A DNA stretch of 11,651 nt from a virus (Duplodnaviria; Heunggongvirae; Uroviricota; Caudoviricetes): IMG/VR virus record IMGVR_UViG_2657245006_000001; one strand, given 5' to 3'. Below are positions 1,564-7,711 of the stretch, one piece after another. A program made the translations under genes and the position numbers. Each line of letters opens with the position of its first letter. The first letter of the stretch is position 1. Below the pieces are notes generated by a model. The model did not search any database and had not been told where the DNA came from. It saw only the letters and a list, made by a program, of their open reading frames with translations.

Positions 1564-1719
1564 TTACTCCTCAGGTTCGTAAGCTGTGAAGACAGCGACC
1601 TCCGTCTGGCCGGTTCGGATTCGTACCTCGCAGAGGTCTTTCCTCGTTACCAGTGCCGTCACTATGACGGTTAAACAGATGACGATCAGGGCGATTAACA
1701 TCGCCTTTTGCTGCTTCAT
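1564..1719 (-). CDS. hok: Hok/Gef-family type I toxin, 51 aa
   Basis: Hand translation gives MKQQKAMLIALIVICLTVIVTALVTRKDLCEVRIRTGQTEVAVFTAYEPEE: one N-terminal transmembrane helix and the conserved Hok periplasmic tail with Cys. AAGGAG lies 9 nt upstream of the ATG at 1719. Not in the ORF track because it is under 60 aa. Recalled as near-identical to HokD (RelF). Confidence 0.85.
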   Translation of the reverse strand: MKQQKAMLIALIVICLTVIVTALVTRKDLCEVRIRTGQTEVAVFTAYEPEE

Positions 1720-1775
1720 AGCCTGCTTCTCCTTGACCTTTCGGTCCGTAAGAGGCTAATCTCTATGTGTCGCAT
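1716..1775 (-). CDS. Mok-like leader ORF (19 aa) whose stop overlaps the hok start codon
   Basis: ATG at 1775..1773 opens MRHIEISLLRTERSRRSRL. Its TGA (1718..1716) overlaps the hok ATG (1719..1717). Resembles the mok/hok coupling arrangement but is much shorter than plasmid R1 mok; Shine-Dalgarno is weak. Confidence 0.3.
   Translation of the reverse strand: MRHIEISLLRTERSRRSRL
1733..1762 (+). promoter_or_regulatory. Candidate Sok-type antisense promoter facing into the hok leader
   Basis: TTGACC (1733-1738), 18-nt spacer, TAATCT (1757-1762) on the plus strand. A transcript starting near 1769 would be antisense to the leader-ORF initiation region (start 1775). A hairpin GCGTC-ttgcag-GACGC (1801-1816) flanked by direct TAATGTTAA repeats lies downstream. 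Confidence 0.3.
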
Positions 1776-1977
1776 AGATATGGCCTCAGATTAATGTTAA
1801 GCGTCTTGCAGGACGCGTAATGTTAACTGGGGCTTTTCTCTATCTGCCTTTTGGTGTTCATGCCTGAGACAGATAGCCTCAAGCACCCGCAGTCATTCTA
1901 CTTAACTAAGATTTCCCCGCAAACCGTTTTTGTCCGGCACAGTAAATATCCAACTAAACCAATGGCGTTCGCTGTAT

Positions 1978-2327: not shown

Positions 2328-2644
2328 TCATTGCCTTATCTGGGAATCTGTAATCAGGTTTCCGGATGCTGGTGGATTTTCGCGTTTTAGTTGTTCATAA
2401 AAGTGCACAGCTTTAACCAGTTCTTCTGATGTAACCGGGACTGGCGGGGCAGTGAATAAGGCCTGAATTTCATAGTTCGGCCTGTCGTTACAATCCTCTT
2501 TTTTCGGTACATATTTCCAGTCACCAGACCACTACTTCCCCTGAAAGTCCGTAACGCCTTTTTTTTCACGTAGCGATATCGCCATGCCACTGTTTTTGCT
2601 TGCCCCGCCGTTTCATGCCCTTCCTGATAATTAACCTCGCTCAT
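2328..2644 (-). pseudogene. Disrupted small gene: reading frame breaks between an A8 and an A6 tract
   Basis: Frame 1 from the ATG at 2644 gives the 85-aa track ORF with odd basic composition. A different frame gives a protein-like tail (...EIQALFTAPPVPVTSEELVKAVHFYEQLKRENPPASGNLITDSQIRQ) running to a TGA at 2328-2330, past the frame-1 stop. That frame contains an in-frame TAG (2532-2534) and an upstream ATG at 2585. The A8 run is plus T8 at 2559-2566. Confidence 0.3.
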
Positions 2645-2817
2645 TCATCGCCCCACTCATCACAATATGCTTCGACCGGAGTTTTTCCTGCTTCATAATC
2701 ATCACGCCATGCTTCAGCATCAGCAGCACTGCCACCACGTAACTCTGCATAGTCCATTAACAGTTCATGCCATTCTTCAAAACTGACGTTGTATTTAGTT
2801 GAACCAAAATCAGCCAT
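2641..2817 (-). CDS. Small acidic protein, 58 aa
   Basis: Hand translation gives MADFGSTKYNVSFEEWHELLMDYAELRGGSAADAEAWRDDYEAGKTPVEAYCDEWGDE. Its ATG overlaps the stop of the upstream 60-aa gene by 8 nt (ATGGCTGA), and its TGA overlaps the next ATG (ATGA). Not in the ORF track because it is under 60 aa. Confidence 0.5.
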   Translation of the reverse strand: MADFGSTKYNVSFEEWHELLMDYAELRGGSAADAEAWRDDYEAGKTPVEAYCDEWGDE

Positions 2818-2992
2818 TTTGTTCTTCCTCTTCGTCTTTTATTTCGTGATATGAGTAATTGCAGTAGTTAAAGAAAATATCTTTTGCTTCGTCATGTATT
2901 TCATCAGGCGTCGCATCATCATCCACTTCGAATTCATCCTCGAAATCTCCACCGGCTATTCCCGTTTCAATAATTATTTTAAACTTTCGCAT
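2810..2992 (-). CDS. Small highly acidic protein, 60 aa
   Basis: ATG at 2992..2990; product MRKFKIIIETGIAGGDFEDEFEVDDDATPDEIHDEAKDIFFNYCNYSYHEIKDEEEEQNG with a very acidic C-terminal half. Preceded on the mRNA by GGAGG, then a hairpin, then 7 nt. Confidence 0.55.
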   Translation of the reverse strand: MRKFKIIIETGIAGGDFEDEFEVDDDATPDEIHDEAKDIFFNYCNYSYHEIKDEEEEQNG

Positions 2993-2999
2993 TTAACTA

Positions 3000-3015
3000 C
3001 CGCCCTTTCGGGCGG
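3000..3015 (-). promoter_or_regulatory. GNRA-tetraloop hairpin between the Shine-Dalgarno and start codon of the 60-aa gene
   Basis: Minus-strand RNA reads GGAGG (3020..3016), then CCGCCC-GAAA-GGGCGG (3015..3000), then UAGUUAA, then AUG (2992). The loop is GAAA only on the minus-strand transcript (UUUC on the other strand). No U-tract follows, so it is not a terminator. Confidence 0.4.
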
Positions 3016-3085
3016 CCTCCTGATGTTCTGAGGGTGCAGAAATCCCTCCGGTTAAGGATTAAATTTTTAACAGAGCTAAATTTAA

Positions 3086-3442
3086 TTATTCAGTTCTGGA
3101 TTTTGTCGCCCTGCGTATCCGCGCTTTCGCGTTACGCTCAATCTGAATTAGCTTTTCTATATTTTTTCGCCTTTCCCGCTCCTCCTGACGCAAGAGCCTT
3201 ACATCATCTGCCAGTCTGGTTTCTCTTTTCGCCACAGAGAGCATCCAGTCAAATGGCTCCACAACTGCACCGCAGATTTTACAGCGGACCTGACGCTCTT
3301 TTTCGTCAACCCGGACAGAGGCGTGATGACAATATGGTCTTTCCGATGGCTCATAAAGAAAATTAACCTGATTACGAGGGTCATCCTCTTTTACCGGAAA
3401 TAAAACGATATTGCTTAACTCATCCTCTGGTTTTATTTCCAT
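3086..3442 (-). CDS. Hypothetical protein, 118 aa, Cys/His cluster and basic coiled-coil-like C-terminus
   Basis: Preferred start is the ATG at 3442..3440 with AGGAG 6 nt upstream (MEIKPEDELSN...). The track ORF extends to a GTG at 3499 directly after the upstream stop, a possible alternative. Motif YCHH...RCKICG, then an RE/K-rich tail. Confidence 0.55.
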   Translation of the reverse strand: MEIKPEDELSNIVLFPVKEDDPRNQVNFLYEPSERPYCHHASVRVDEKERQVRCKICGAVVEPFDWMLSVAKRETRLADDVRLLRQEERERRKNIEKLIQIERNAKARIRRATKSRTE

Positions 3443-3499
3443 GCTCCTCTCCTTTGATGCGAATGCCAGCGGTAATTGAAGCCTGATAGCTAATTTCAC

Positions 3500-3922
3500 T
3501 CACAGTACCGCCTCCTGAAAATTACCCTGATAGAAAGCCAGTACACGCTGCATAGCTTCACTCTTCCGGCACTCGCGACAGATTATGTTTAGGCGACTGT
3601 CGTAGCGACGTATTTCTCCGTCAGGTGATGACCAGATAAGGTCCGGATCAACCACAGCAGGTTTCTTCACCTTTGCCCTCGAGAGTTTTTTGCGGGCGTT
3701 TTGCCAGTCCTTACGCGCCTGTTCAGAGGGGAATAACCCGTAGCCGGAGTTGTATACATCGCCGCTGGCAACCAGCTCTCTTGCGAGAACGCTCATCAGA
3801 TATCTTGTCGCACCTGTCTTGACTTCCAGTTGCCGTAACGTCTCACGCCCACTCTGGCGTACGAGTTCAACAACCTGCCCTTTAATTTTTTCTCGCTCTT
3901 CTTGTGTAAAAACTTTTGCCAC
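3500..3922 (-). CDS. Hypothetical protein, 140 aa, putative helix-turn-helix
   Basis: GTG start at 3922..3920 with AGGAGG 4 nt upstream; TGA at 3502..3500. Contains an HTH-like stretch (TLRQLEVKTGATRYLMSVLARELV). Sits directly downstream of the replication initiator. Confidence 0.6.
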   Translation of the reverse strand: MAKVFTQEEREKIKGQVVELVRQSGRETLRQLEVKTGATRYLMSVLARELVASGDVYNSGYGLFPSEQARKDWQNARKKLSRAKVKKPAVVDPDLIWSSPDGEIRRYDSRLNIICRECRKSEAMQRVLAFYQGNFQEAVL

Positions 3923-3962: not shown

Positions 3963-5033
3963 TTACCCCCTGAAGCCCGGTGGAATTTCGGTATCCGGTT
4001 CAGAAATATGATTCACACAACGCTGGTTGTTCGTGCCGCTTACCGGGAGCAACCAGGGGTTCTCAAAATTCCGGTCCGGTCCAAAAAACGTCGTCGCTCG
4101 CTGAACAAATTCCGTTCCCGTTTTCCCGGTAGCCGCCAAGTATCTTGCGTAACGCCTCACGCCATCCAGCATGGCCTCTGGTGGCACCCCCTCGCGTAAT
4201 CTGGCCTTCCAGGCACTGAAAGCGGATTTCTTCGGGTTTGCTCCGGCACGCAACGGGTACTCCCGCCAGACCTGTTCGAACACATCCGGATAATCCACTC
4301 GTCCCACAGACAGCCCGGTGTTTTCCGGGACTACCCGATCGGCTTCCCGCTGAATGGCGGAATCGGCTTCAGGCTGCTGCAGTTGGTGTGATTGCTCCGG
4401 CCTTGGGGTCATCACCTGCTGCACAGCGCCCGAATCGGCTTTCAGCGCATACGCTGAATCGGCTTCCGGTGTCGTGCCTGCTGGCTGACCAGGATTGACG
4501 GTCTGAACATCCCCTGCCTGGTTCGTGGCGTTTTTTACGCCATGGACCATAGTGTTTTGATCTTCTTGATCTGTATCTTTATCTGTATCTTTATCTGTCG
4601 TGACTCGTCGTGACATGTGCGTGACATTTCGTGACGCGCCGTGACAATCGCCATTTTGTTCCCGCTTTCTTTCCCTCTCTCGCTGCGCCCTCTTGCGCTC
4701 TGCCGGAGATTTTGCGGTTTGCGAAATATTGCCGTTGTCCTCTTTCAGCACCTGGCGTTTTTCCCATCCAGTGATTAAATCACCATCAAGTACCCGCCCC
4801 TGCATCGTCTGCAAAATTGAATCAATTACCTCTTCTGTCACGTCGAGCGCACTTGCCAAATCTTCTGTCGTGACATCAATGTGACCTCGCGTGACATTTC
4901 GTGACGCGCTCACCAGGAGGTGGATATACACTGCCATCACTGTTGCAATTGGCTGCCCTGACACCCTGGCAATTGTTCGCCACTTAGGGTCATTTGGCAT
5001 GTCATGCCATAATCTGAGCCAGGCGTTAGCCAT
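3963..5033 (-). CDS. Replication initiator (lambda O-like role), 356 aa: winged-helix N-terminal domain, acidic repeat linker, conserved C-terminal domain
   Basis: ATG at 5033..5031 with GAGGT 5 nt upstream (the track ORF begins two codons earlier at a GTG). Position after the cro and CII-like genes matches lambda O. The gene contains two phased GTGAC repeat arrays. The C-terminal motif FEQVWREYPLRAG...FVQRATTFFGPDRNFENPWLLP is recalled as a phage replication-associated family. Confidence 0.65.
   Translation of the reverse strand: MANAWLRLWHDMPNDPKWRTIARVSGQPIATVMAVYIHLLVSASRNVTRGHIDVTTEDLASALDVTEEVIDSILQTMQGRVLDGDLITGWEKRQVLKEDNGNISQTAKSPAERKRAQRERERKREQNGDCHGASRNVTHMSRRVTTDKDTDKDTDQEDQNTMVHGVKNATNQAGDVQTVNPGQPAGTTPEADSAYALKADSGAVQQVMTPRPEQSHQLQQPEADSAIQREADRVVPENTGLSVGRVDYPDVFEQVWREYPLRAGANPKKSAFSAWKARLREGVPPEAMLDGVRRYARYLAATGKTGTEFVQRATTFFGPDRNFENPWLLPVSGTNNQRCVNHISEPDTEIPPGFRG
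4569..4650. repeat. Iteron-like array 1 inside the initiator gene: 12-bp tandem repeat plus five phased GTGAC motifs
   Basis: ATCTGTATCTTT occurs twice in tandem (4569-4592). GTGAC occurs at 4600, 4610, 4621, 4631 and 4641, spaced 10-11 bp. The 19-mer GTGACATTTCGTGACGCGC (4621-4639) is repeated exactly at 4891-4909. A polypyrimidine tract follows at 4651-4710. Confidence 0.55.
4831..4910. repeat. Iteron-like array 2 inside the initiator gene: four phased GTGAC motifs plus one inverted copy
   Basis: GTGAC at 4870, 4881, 4891 and 4901 with 10-11 bp spacing; inverted GTCAC at 4837-4841; TCTTCTGTC repeated at 4831 and 4861; shares the exact 19-mer with array 1. Confidence 0.55.
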
Positions 5034-5104
5034 ACTCACCTCTTCTGATACCGAATCTTTTTACTCACGAGTTGCCGGAAGCGATTCGATATGGCTATTG
5101 TCAG

Positions 5105-5530
5105 TCAATGTACTGCCACAGCATTTCCTGCCGGGCCACCACGGTTCATCTGATTGAAACCGGCGATTGCCACTGCGACAAAATCATCAGCGTCTCTCAC
5201 CAGTCGCTCCCGCGTCTCCACCAGCTCCCGAAAATAAGCTGAACTGTGGCTGCGCATTCTGGCCACCAGCAAAGGTGGCATTGCCTTTTCGATCGCTGGT
5301 AACAACGCCTGAATTTTTTCAACTGCATCAGGGGTGTCTTTCTCTACCCAGCGGAAAATTTTCTGGGTATTGCGAGCCAGGGCTTCCGGATGGCTGTCGT
5401 CATACAGTTCCGGGAACGTCATTCCCAGCTCGAAATACGCTTTGGTAATTTTCGCAGCCGGTACTTTTTCGCCGTCCGGATGCGCCCAGGCATTCATCGC
5501 CATGCGGATGTGTTCATGCTTGATTTTCAT
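5105..5530 (-). CDS. ydaT: YdaT-family protein (functional analogue of CII), 141 aa
   Basis: ATG at 5530..5528 overlaps the cro-like stop (ATGA). N-terminus MKIKHEHIRMAM... and C-terminus ...AVAVH are recalled as the YdaT family. Position immediately after cro matches lambda cII. Confidence 0.7.
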   Translation of the reverse strand: MKIKHEHIRMAMNAWAHPDGEKVPAAKITKAYFELGMTFPELYDDSHPEALARNTQKIFRWVEKDTPDAVEKIQALLPAIEKAMPPLLVARMRSHSSAYFRELVETRERLVRDADDFVAVAIAGFNQMNRGGPAGNAVAVH

Positions 5531-5757
5531 GAATCCCCCCCTTGGTTAGAAGGCGGATTATGATCAGAACCGGGAATGACAACCGTCGGTATGTGTAACT
5601 CATATTTGAGCGCCCCGGCAGTGACTGCCTGAATTAGCAACGCCCATTTCCACGGAACCTCTTCCCCCCACATGCTGACTGTGGTTTTTGACGTTCCTAG
5701 AGCTGCGGCTGTTTTAACAACTCCGCCAAAATAGCCTAATACTTCTGATTTTTTCAT
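5527..5757 (-). CDS. cro: Cro-like HTH repressor (YdaS/Cro family), 76 aa
   Basis: ATG at 5757..5755 with GGAG 6 nt upstream; the upstream in-frame extension in the track ORF has no Shine-Dalgarno. HTH motif GGVVKTAAALGTSKTTVSMW. Divergent from the CI-like gene across a 91-bp region. Confidence 0.75.
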   Translation of the reverse strand: MKKSEVLGYFGGVVKTAAALGTSKTTVSMWGEEVPWKWALLIQAVTAGALKYELHIPTVVIPGSDHNPPSNQGGDS

Positions 5758-5848
5758 GAGTCGCTCCATAAAACTGAACGTCAAAAGTTTAATAATCAAA
5801 ACCAAAGAAAGTCAAGAAACAAAACCATCTGTGTTTTAAAATCAAAAC
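5758..5848. promoter_or_regulatory. Divergent immunity promoter and operator region between cro and cI
   Basis: AT-rich 91-bp spacer. AATCAAAAC is repeated at 5792-5800 and 5840-5848, with TCAAAAG at 5781-5787. Imperfect palindrome TGTTTT-aaaatc-AAAACA at 5832-5849. TAAAAT (5837-5842) lies about 7 nt before the cI ATG and no Shine-Dalgarno precedes it, consistent with a leaderless cI mRNA as in lambda PRM. A leftward -35 TTGACT (minus strand, 5815..5810) could serve cro. Confidence 0.45.
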
Positions 5849-6487
5849 ATGAGCAAGCAAACTATATCTGAACGCATAACCCAACGTATGCATGCGCTAA
5901 ACCTGAAAGGCAAAGACCTTGTCAATGGCACTGGCGCATCAAAAGGCTCCGTAAGTCAATGGATGAACGGTGGAGGAGCGCCGTCCTCGCGTTACATAAG
6001 TTCACTGGCAAAAATATTGAAAGTAAACGAAAATTGGCTTCTTAATGGAGGAGAGTTAAATACAGGTGATTCGCTTGATCTATCTTTACCGCCGATAAAA
6101 ACGGTTCCGCTACTATCACTTCAGCAGGCAGCAAGCTGGAGTGATTATATGAAAAATTCCTCAATAACCTCTTGTGTGCAGCTTGTCGGAGAAATCCCGG
6201 TCAATACCTTTGCAGTTGTTCTAGAGAGTGACAGTATGTCAACATCTGGTGGGGGAGTTTCCATCCCAAATGGTTCAACAGTTTTTGTTGATCCCGATCG
6301 AACCGTACAACCAGGAAATATTGTCCTTGCCTTACCCAAAGGGACCACAACACCTGTCATTCGTAAACTGGAGATAGAAGGGCCGGATATTCTTTTAGTC
6401 CCCACGAATCCTCGCTACCCTTCAATTATGCTGGATGATCTATCTTGCATATTGGGCGTATGCTTTAAAATTCAACAAGATATTTAA
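5849..6487 (+). CDS. cI: CI-like prophage repressor, 212 aa: N-terminal XRE-type HTH plus C-terminal S24 (LexA-like) autopeptidase domain
   Basis: ATG at 5849, TAA at 6485-6487. N-terminal HTH (ISERITQRMHALNLKGKDLVNGTGASKGSVSQWMNG). C-terminal domain has the Ser nucleophile context ESDSM and a downstream Lys (VIRKLEIEG), as in LexA and lambda CI. Confidence 0.85.
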   Translation: MSKQTISERITQRMHALNLKGKDLVNGTGASKGSVSQWMNGGGAPSSRYISSLAKILKVNENWLLNGGELNTGDSLDLSLPPIKTVPLLSLQQAASWSDYMKNSSITSCVQLVGEIPVNTFAVVLESDSMSTSGGGVSIPNGSTVFVDPDRTVQPGNIVLALPKGTTTPVIRKLEIEGPDILLVPTNPRYPSIMLDDLSCILGVCFKIQQDI

Positions 6488-7313: not shown

Positions 7314-7668
7314 TAGCTAACCAACGAAGCTAAGGTTGGTAATTAAGGAGTTCTCCACGGGTGAGGTGGAGTGCGTGCGCCGGACACGGGTGAGCATCCG
7401 GCACTGACAGTTTACTGAAAGGATATTTCCCTGAAAAGTCAGACCATAACGCGAAAGCGCACGGCGAGGTAGCTGGTTCATAGATAGCCTGTCGTTAAAT
7501 TTTCGTCGACCGTGCGCTTCCGGTTGTGGCAACCCGCGAAATGGTGCGGCGGTAAGTATGGCGGGGTTATTTCTTCCCCGTTGAGGACACCGGGTTGTCA
7601 GGTTGACCATACGCTTAAGTGACAACCCCGCTGCAACGCCCTCTGTTATCAATTTTCTGGTGACGTTT
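7314..7668 (+). other. GC-rich structured non-coding block with no ORF (candidate structured RNA, regulatory element or gene remnant)
   Basis: All three plus frames are full of stops; the only minus ORF (7317..7652) starts at a non-ATG codon and is Arg-rich. Perfect stems: 7455-7464 with 7510-7519 (10 bp), 7592-7600 with 7620-7628 (9 bp), 7379-7384 with 7397-7402, 7320-7325 with 7335-7340. CACGGGTGAG repeated at 7356 and 7385. A sampled line hand-counts to about 60% GC. Confidence 0.3.
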
Positions 7669-7711
7669 GGCGGTATCAGTTTTACTCCGTGACTGCTCTG
7701 CCGCCCTTTTT
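7669..7711 (+). terminator. Candidate intrinsic terminator at the end of the structured block
   Basis: GGCGG (7669-7673) pairs with CCGCC (7701-7705); an imperfect inner stem extends the hairpin; T-run at 7707-7711 follows. A U-tract exists only for the plus strand. Confidence 0.4.

Follow-up and report, generated by a model that had tools for sequence, protein, structure and literature searches.

We analyzed an 11,651-nt stretch of viral DNA (Caudoviricetes; IMG/VR record IMGVR_UViG_2657245006_000001), hereafter the window, and focused on a minus-strand gene for a predicted replication initiator and on two arrays of the pentamer GTGAC that lie within its coding sequence (Table 1). Together with an adjoining A+T-rich tract and a hairpin, the GTGAC arrays quite probably form, judging from sequence, the theta-type replication origin of a Rac/lambda-like temperate phage, located inside the gene of its own initiator.

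Table 1. Features of the initiator locus (positions are those of the window)
Feature	Position	Strand	Remarks
Initiator gene, 356 aa	3963..5033	-	ATG at 5033 with GAGG before it; PHROG 3729
N-array, four phased cores (CGTGAC, TGTGAC, CGTGAC, CGTGAC)	4869..4905	+	Gene nt 128-164
Inverted copy, CGTGAC on the minus strand	4837..4842	-	~28 bp from the N-array; encodes D-V-T (aa 64-66)
Polypyrimidine tract	4646..4700	+	78-85% pyrimidine; coding strand purine-rich; encodes the basic helix AERKRAQRERERKREQ
L-array, five phased CGTGAC cores	4599..4645	+	Array 1 of the first-pass annotation; disordered interdomain linker
A+T-rich tract, candidate DNA-unwinding element	4556..4599	+	Coding strand (GATAAA/GATACA)n; includes the three 12-bp repeats; encodes DKDTDKDTDQED
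Inverted repeat, 13-bp stem, 5-nt loop	4519..4549	.	Flanks the A+T-rich tract on the side away from the iterons

Phased repeats within the initiator gene

On the plus strand, GTGAC is found in a cluster of five copies (starting at 4600, 4610, 4621, 4631 and 4641, with spacings of 10, 11, 10 and 10 bp), named here the L-array, and in a second cluster of four (4870, 4881, 4891 and 4901; spacings of 11, 10 and 10 bp), the N-array; a single inverted copy occupies positions 4837-4841. The hexamer CGTGAC accounts for eight of the nine direct copies and for the inverted one, the copy at 4880 being TGTGAC. The 12-bp unit TCTTKATCTGTM is repeated three times in tandem at 4564-4599. The first-pass annotation of this DNA had listed nine direct GTGAC copies in two clusters with 10-11 bp spacing, one inverted copy and a 12-bp repeat, all of which were recovered by position.

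The clustering and phasing of the pentamer were compared with 1000 dinucleotide-preserving shuffles of the window. The number of same-strand GTGAC copies per 342 bp is 9, versus a maximum of 5 and a mean of 2.4 in the shuffles, and the longest run with 10/11-bp spacing comprises 5 copies, versus at most 2. None of the unrelated 5-mers in the window has a phased run of more than two copies, and no other iteron clusters were found elsewhere within the 11.6-kb window. DnaA boxes are absent near the arrays, the window having only two one-mismatch sites, both distant and at chance level. Among the other candidate elements, the palindrome GTGATTAAATCAC between the arrays (4771-4783) was dropped, as it is not kept in relatives at 83-88% DNA identity, and a promoter-like match inside the L-array (4621-4648) was discounted as a weak 9/12 consensus match of background frequency.

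The 19-mer GTGACATTTCGTGACGCGC has exactly two occurrences in the window, starting at 4621 and 4891. The duplication pointed out in the first-pass annotation is therefore exact, but it is lineage-specific, as E. coli relatives with 85% identity have other spacers in the linker array. The comparison indicates that the conserved element is the 6-bp core with its phasing, and not the exact 19-mer. The 19-mer is duplicated in this lineage because a two-core unit, GTCACG(A/C)AATGTCAC, which encodes S-R-N-V-T, recurs in both arrays; the same recurrence is seen across many genera, and it could reflect either gene conversion between the arrays or a preferred spacer.

The mechanically called open reading frame (ORF) of the initiator spans 3963-5039 and starts with GTG at 5039, the ATG at 5033 being the likely start; all arrays and repeats fall inside this ORF. 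The protein matches phrog_3729, 'replication initiation protein' (E 1.7e-256, PHROGs). Its N-terminal 160 residues show weak matches to PHROG 'replisome organizer' families (phrog_4880, E 4e-6; phrog_5968, E 2.9e-4), and its C-terminal part gives PHROG matches labelled DnaD-like loader or primosomal protein, while no family was found for the initiator in Pfam (E <= 0.01) or NCBIfam. Close relatives are named 'phage replisome organizer' by NCBI. Seven deposited E. coli phages have the gene at 98-99% identity, under the names replication protein O, replisome organiser or primosomal protein I.

We modeled aa 1-158 of the initiator with AlphaFold2, using a 39-sequence alignment (mean pLDDT, the predicted local confidence score, 70.6). 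The modeled N-terminal domain (aa ~1-95) consists of helices at residues 16-25, 29-45, 56-63 and 67-77 and a beta-hairpin at 78-86, with pLDDT of 84-93 for most of residues 11-90, and is followed by residues 96-158, which are disordered in the model except for a basic helix (110-126). The N-array, read in three frames, encodes ASRNVTRGHIDVT (aa 43-55), a loop that connects two helices of the N-terminal domain; in the model its peptide forms a helix end and the loop 46-55, and relatives insert whole iteron units right there. The peptide of the L-array lies in a region with pLDDT <50. Both arrays are thus predicted by the model to occupy parts of the protein that are able to tolerate a DNA-dictated sequence.

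The linker region required one correction of the first-pass annotation: the L-array encodes ...GASRNVTHMSRRVTT, and the acidic sequence DKDTDKDTD that had been assigned to it comes from the neighboring 12-bp repeat. The polypyrimidine tract described beside the L-array is present. The basic helix that it encodes has R113, K114, R115, R118 and R120 invariant among relatives, and the tract is probably constrained by the protein rather than being a DNA element. As a candidate unwinding element it was rejected, given its A+T content of 38-50% and its coding for a conserved helix.

Genes on the minus strand are arranged as Cro-like (5527-5805; P22_Cro-like), CII/YdaT-like (5105-5530; a phrog_163 match), initiator, and DUF977/Ren-like (3500-3922), and a CI-like S24 repressor gene lies divergently at 5849-6487. 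A RecE-type exonuclease gene, DicF and hok/sok are located farther off in the window. The locus is a Rac/lambda-like prophage's early-right operon, in which the initiator occupies the slot of gene O. Helicase or loader families were not matched by the six larger downstream minus-strand ORFs (at least 85 aa; 2387-3922 and 67-1525), three ORFs of 58-72 aa being unscanned.

Conservation and switching of the repeat cores

Given the 10-11 bp unit, successive copies of the repeat fall in different reading frames, and all three frames are used. The N-array reads GCG-TCA-CGA-AAT-GTC-ACG-CGA-GGT-CAC-ATT-GAT-GTC-ACG in the coding direction and encodes A-S-R-N-V-T-R-G-H-I-D-V-T. E. coli relatives with 83-88% DNA identity have the CGTGAC cores unchanged but vary in the 4-5-bp spacers; a 21-bp insertion of two units gives six N-array copies in relatives of this group. 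A separate observation concerns E. coli O157:H7 17B6-2 (locus L006, gene 949-2002), where an extra 10-bp unit in the linker array frameshifts the initiator, which is a pseudogene in RefSeq. Because this one-unit insertion breaks the frame, iteron slippage can inactivate a prophage replication gene.

A scan of one genome per species yielded 52 loci encoding the N-terminal domain. One of the two seeds of the scan, [AG]S[RQ]NVTRGH, biases the proteins that are found but not their synonymous codons. In ~22 of the 52 loci, GTCAC is present at exactly gene nt 128, 138, 148 and 159. The GC content of these loci ranges from 34 to 69%, and they come from about 20 genera, among them Aquitalea, Entomomonas, Rahnella, Serratia, Bordetella, Gilvimarinus, Pseudomonas, Acidovorax, Stenotrophomonas, Castellaniella, Pseudothauera and Chromobacterium. 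These loci also possess, at gene nt ~370-430, a second array with 3-5 copies. The inverted copy, at gene nt 192, is found in most GTCAC-type relatives and is absent from a few, being conserved less strictly. The spacing between cores among relatives is 10 bp in 149 cases and 11 bp in 35 cases.

Codon usage was analyzed for the invariant residues encoded over the cores in 20 loci. The codons GTC, ACG, GGT and CAC are each used in 20 of 20 loci, TCA in 19 and GCG in 18, whereas at 25 invariant residues elsewhere in the domain every synonymous codon occurs; codon entropy averages 0.19 bits at the cores versus 1.56 bits at these controls (Mann-Whitney p = 7.5e-6). The peptides encoded by the linker array diverge between genera (GDCHGASRNVTHMSRRVTTD, EEGHDESRKVTGSHDR, SAGHEASRDVTLD), and the cores GTCACG(A/C) remain fixed. 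The conserved site is restricted to the 6-bp core (GTCACG, followed by A or C), with variable flanks. Because the copies use all frames, the cores are invariant among varying spacers, and their codons are frozen across genera, we conclude that purifying selection acts on the DNA of the cores and not on the peptide.

Sister subfamilies retain the domain and have two arrays at the corresponding positions of the gene, but with another core in both. The GTAACG(C) core is characteristic of loci L031, L034, L039, L042, L049 and L050, and the CGAACGC core of L038, L041, L043, L044, L046, L047, L053 and L054. In L045 the CGAACGC core is present in the linker array only, and L060 likewise has a linker array only, of the GAACGCC type. 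The loop peptide changes with the core (SRNVTRGHVDVT, SNATERGRTQN and CNAVKRGETQCNA). The cores are related to each other (NN[A/C]ACG), which suggests, at the level of sequence, stepwise shifts of specificity. Two further family members, L052 and L059, have an unrelated insertion after aa ~110, with a sub-threshold match to MUG113 (PF13455) in L052.

The two halves of the initiator are also shuffled as modules. Shigella phage 75/02 Stx has the C-terminal half in common with the initiator described here (65% aa identity), and its N-terminal half is unrelated; its repeat is a different one, GAAGGGGCT. In this phage (L002), the copies form two groups ~250 bp apart (3589-3653 and 3883-3905), one of two direct copies beside a linker repeat, (TTCCTG)n, and the other of two inverted copies, and an AT-rich hairpin region (3690-3730) separates the groups; the GAAGGGGCT region is probably the phage's own origin. 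In an O157-type relative, aa 1-151 (85%) and the CGTGAC arrays are common and the C-terminus is unrelated, with a PF17948 DnaT domain (E 3e-17) and a lambda-P-like gene downstream (PF06992, E 3e-15). The partner gene varies, being Ren-like here, lambda-P-like in O157 and DnaC in 75/02 Stx.

A candidate origin and competing explanations

The A+T-rich tract at the coding-downstream side of the L-array is 70% A+T, with 75% pyrimidine on the plus strand, and no 30-mer of the gene is less stable than 4565-4594 (dG -31.8, z +2.6). All iteron-bearing relatives have an A-rich, purine-skewed tract at this place. The 45 nt past the last linker iteron in the coding direction have a mean A+T content of 66%, versus 45% for the locus, and are 73% purine. 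The A+T content of the tract is above the locus value in 38 of 40 relatives, the typical sequence being AGATAAAGATAAAGA..., and its GAT/AAA codons persist in hosts with 66-69% GC. The claim that an AT-rich unwinding element is missing does not hold: the 12-bp repeat beside the L-array belongs to a 70% A+T tract that is conserved in relatives and placed as in lambda. The neighboring hairpin (4519-4549) has a DNA folding energy of -10.9 kcal/mol (z -5.15), which is equaled in none of 200 shuffles. It is kept in Shigella phage 75/02 Stx, where a compensatory swap of the loop-closing pair from T:A to A:T alters two amino acids. At the hairpin position, small GC-rich palindromes are mildly enriched in 36 relatives (6.28 versus a background of 5.24, sd 1.08).

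The parallel with lambda, where iterons lie inside the initiator gene, was drawn already in the first-pass annotation. On comparative grounds it is strongly supported by the position of the initiator in the O slot, by the DNA-level selection and by the joint switch of the core in both arrays, but the missing AT-rich element that accompanied it has to be given up, and the weight laid on the 19-mer is too great. Loci L045 and L060 have the linker array alone, which suggests that the linker array and the tract are the core origin.

We infer the initiator as the core binder, the tract as the place of unwinding, a role for the N-array and a route of helicase recruitment, as follows. The winged-helix-like N-terminal domain of the initiator would bind the 6-bp CGTGAC cores, and with one core per helical turn the bound molecules would be arranged on one face of the DNA. 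The five-site L-array would nucleate an O-some-like oligomer beside the (GATAAA)n tract, which would then melt, the melted region being bounded by the hairpin. The N-array with the inverted copy, ~230-270 bp away, may be an auxiliary site that stabilizes the complex by looping or provides control. Finally, the C-terminal part with its DnaT-like tail would bring in the host DnaB/DnaC.

The tail comprises the last ~23 residues of the protein, QRCVNHISEPDTEIPPGFRG (window 3966-4034), and is a close match to the C-terminus of E. coli DnaT (PDB 6aep, 2ru8, 9zbt). The same motif is found at the end of several C-terminal modules in the family that are otherwise unrelated. The protein does not qualify as a full DnaT, the NCBIfam DnaT model giving 18.1 bits versus a cutoff of 201, with residues 333-356 alone matching. 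Besides the DnaT tail, the PDB sequence search matched a designed repeat protein, which was dismissed as spurious. The C-terminal domain of DnaT forms filaments on single-stranded DNA and marks the site of DnaB loading (PMC13377028). The initiator would thus borrow part of the host DnaT pathway, and its tail may be a mimicry that gives access to the helicase-loading machinery of the host.

A more elaborate scheme, to which we assign an outside chance, is a loader-less origin. In this scheme, the two arrays ~230-270 bp apart would be joined on an oligomer of the initiator and melt the (GATAAA)n tract, and the tail, nearly a copy of the final ~20 residues of DnaT, would plug into the DnaT-dependent DnaB/DnaC loading of the host, in place of a phage loader of the P or DnaC type. 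The location of the N-array in a surface loop of the presumed binding domain would couple changes in the iteron and in the loop and could speed switches of specificity (GTCACG, GTAACG, CGAACGC).

Several points weigh against the interpretation of the locus as an origin bound by its own initiator. The tract is only 70% A+T and also encodes the acidic linker. Subfamilies whose cores differ have very similar N-terminal domains, and the determinants of specificity are not evident; moreover, in-gene iterons are not recognizable in L037, L040, L051, L052, L055 and L059, where this domain is conserved. The arrays lie within the DNA that codes for the N-terminal domain and linker, so their co-inheritance with the domain is unavoidable and is no proof of binding. 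The structure model is of moderate confidence, and a Foldseek search with the N-terminal model returned no significant match (best E 0.26); the top entries, themselves non-significant, are the winged helix-turn-helix (wHTH) regulators DasR, FixK2, CRP, MepR and ArsR, and the modeled fold is consistent with wHTH. Finally, we found in the literature no description of this origin and no experimental reports of binding or firing for the family, an earlier in silico prediction being possible.

The strongest competitor of the origin interpretation would be that the arrays are initiator sites serving mainly for control, by autoregulation, a transcription roadblock or handcuffing as at incA/incC of P1 and F, with unwinding elsewhere in the phage. 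We consider it unlikely. Two separated arrays with an inverted copy do resemble the control iterons and operator-like inverted repeats of plasmids such as P1, F and R6K, and the presence of the linker array only in L045 and L060 indicates that the N-array is dispensable for basic function. However, the linker array invariably adjoins a conserved A-rich tract, plus a hairpin in this lineage, and the core of a lambda-type origin is built in this way; no further iteron cluster exists in the 11.6-kb window; and a control role of the N-array would fit the origin explanation too. Much less probable is the use of the cores by another protein, either the CII/YdaT-like or Ren-like neighbor or a host factor. 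In favor of it, the N-terminal domain hardly changes between subfamilies whose cores differ, but the neighbors differ among relatives with identical iterons, the arrays track the initiator gene across bacterial classes with widely differing hosts, and the characterized in-gene iterons of phages are all bound by the cognate initiator, as in lambda (PMC7466680).

A function of the arrays in packaging (pac) or site-specific recombination, or as a hotspot of modular exchange, appears highly improbable. The mosaic breakpoints between N- and C-terminal modules do fall at the linker array and the AT-rich repeat, but the domain boundary and the repeats themselves explain these breakpoints equally well, and a place in an early replication operon, phasing with the helix and a neighboring AT-rich tract typify origins rather than pac or att sites. 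We give almost no credence to the explanation of the repeats as a by-product of coding duplication or of a conserved peptide motif (SRNVTRGH..VT) that has no function as DNA, although this motif is invariant in the GTCAC subfamily and low-complexity linkers often grow by slippage. The 10-11 bp unit runs through three frames, with synonymous codons frozen at the cores only and saturated at the 25 control residues; the linker peptides vary over fixed cores; subfamilies swap the whole peptide in step with a new DNA core in both arrays; and insertion of a unit breaks the frame in one strain. The notion of mere coding-sequence duplications, which the first-pass annotation had named as the outcome that would speak against an origin, is thus contradicted by the frozen codons of the cores and the varying peptides of the linker.

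Comparison with known systems and significance

The origin of lambda lies centrally within the initiator gene and consists of iterons and an AT-rich tract, and the extra iterons in the Stx phages P27 and 933W (six iterons) add in-frame residues to the protein (PMC7466680). In our own reading of the lambda sequence (NC_001416), the coding strand of ori has four iterons, then GACACAAAAGACACTATTACAAAAGAAAAAAGAAAAGATTATTCG, and next an inverted repeat. The locus described here is similar in that the candidate origin lies inside the initiator gene, between the parts coding for N-terminal DNA binding and C-terminal partner binding; in the order of direct repeats, A-rich purine-skewed tract and inverted repeat in the coding direction; in the addition of residues upon iteron gain; and in the operon position after cro and cII. 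On the other hand, the initiator is not a homolog of lambda O (no Pfam match), its 6-bp cores are one turn (10-11 bp) apart, whereas the 18-19-bp lambda iterons have an internal dyad and are ~two turns apart, a second array with an inverted copy is present ~230-270 bp upstream in the coding sequence of the DNA-binding domain, and the next gene is DUF977/Ren-like, with no P gene.

The initiator G38P of phage SPP1 reportedly has an N-terminal origin-binding domain, as described by Missich et al. in 1997, with sites in its own gene beside an AT-rich segment (oriL). The present system is similar in having its sites in its own gene by an AT-rich segment and in the weak PHROG replisome-organiser matches, but the homology is marginal, with no match to the Pfam family Phage_rep_org_N, no loader or helicase similar to G39P/G40P was matched, and the sequence and layout of the repeats differ. 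On sequence grounds, the N-terminal domain is related at most distantly to the G38P replisome-organiser domain. Among plasmids, P1 and F combine origin iterons with control iterons, and phage P4 possesses ori and crr. As in these replicons, two separated clusters of one short repeat are present here and would allow looping or handcuffing; unlike in them, the clusters are ~230-270 bp apart, both are inside the initiator ORF, and there is no homology of sequence or protein.

The Rac prophage carries an active origin, oriJ (PMC3945230). The K-12 Rac locus is similar to the locus analyzed here in its set of genes: a repressor (racR), ydaS/cro-like, ydaT, a replication gene and a DUF977 gene. However, its initiator belongs to the DUF1376 family (YdaU) and is accompanied by the DnaC-like YdaV, and the sequences are not homologous. 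The assignment of the K-12 Rac ydaU-ydaV module to the same family was therefore rejected, as both the initiator family and the repeats are different. We also observed that ydaU of K-12 Rac (L003 2761-3063) contains five internal direct repeats, ~AGATGTTCAA, which may be the oriJ iterons. In the window itself, Rfam profiles detected the sok antitoxin RNA (1717-1888, minus strand, 106.7 bits), which implies a hok/sok toxin-antitoxin locus, and the DicF small RNA (7655-7706, plus strand, 76.7 bits). Both sok and DicF are typically carried by Rac/Qin-like prophages.

Of 5426 complete E. coli genomes, 2186 contain the segment that encodes the N-terminal domain and its iterons; O157:H7 prophages are among its carriers, as are several temperate coliphages that have been isolated. 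In the phage collection, the N-terminal domain was found only in recently sequenced phages of Escherichia, Aeromonas, Pseudomonas, Ralstonia and Microcystis, and in no model phage, and the protein is mostly annotated as 'hypothetical'. The candidate origin is uncharacterized and follows the lambda paradigm with a bipartite layout and an overlap of coding and non-coding information; as a concept it stays within this textbook paradigm. A defined origin would provide a handle for prophage induction, escape replication and compatible phage-derived replicons, and its parts would aid annotation in a family found in many proteobacterial genera and also outside them. The arrays are also an unusually clean natural case of a coding sequence overprinted with a DNA signal, with a hexamer read in three frames and codons frozen in loci of 34-69% GC, in which site and encoded peptide change jointly in whole subfamilies.

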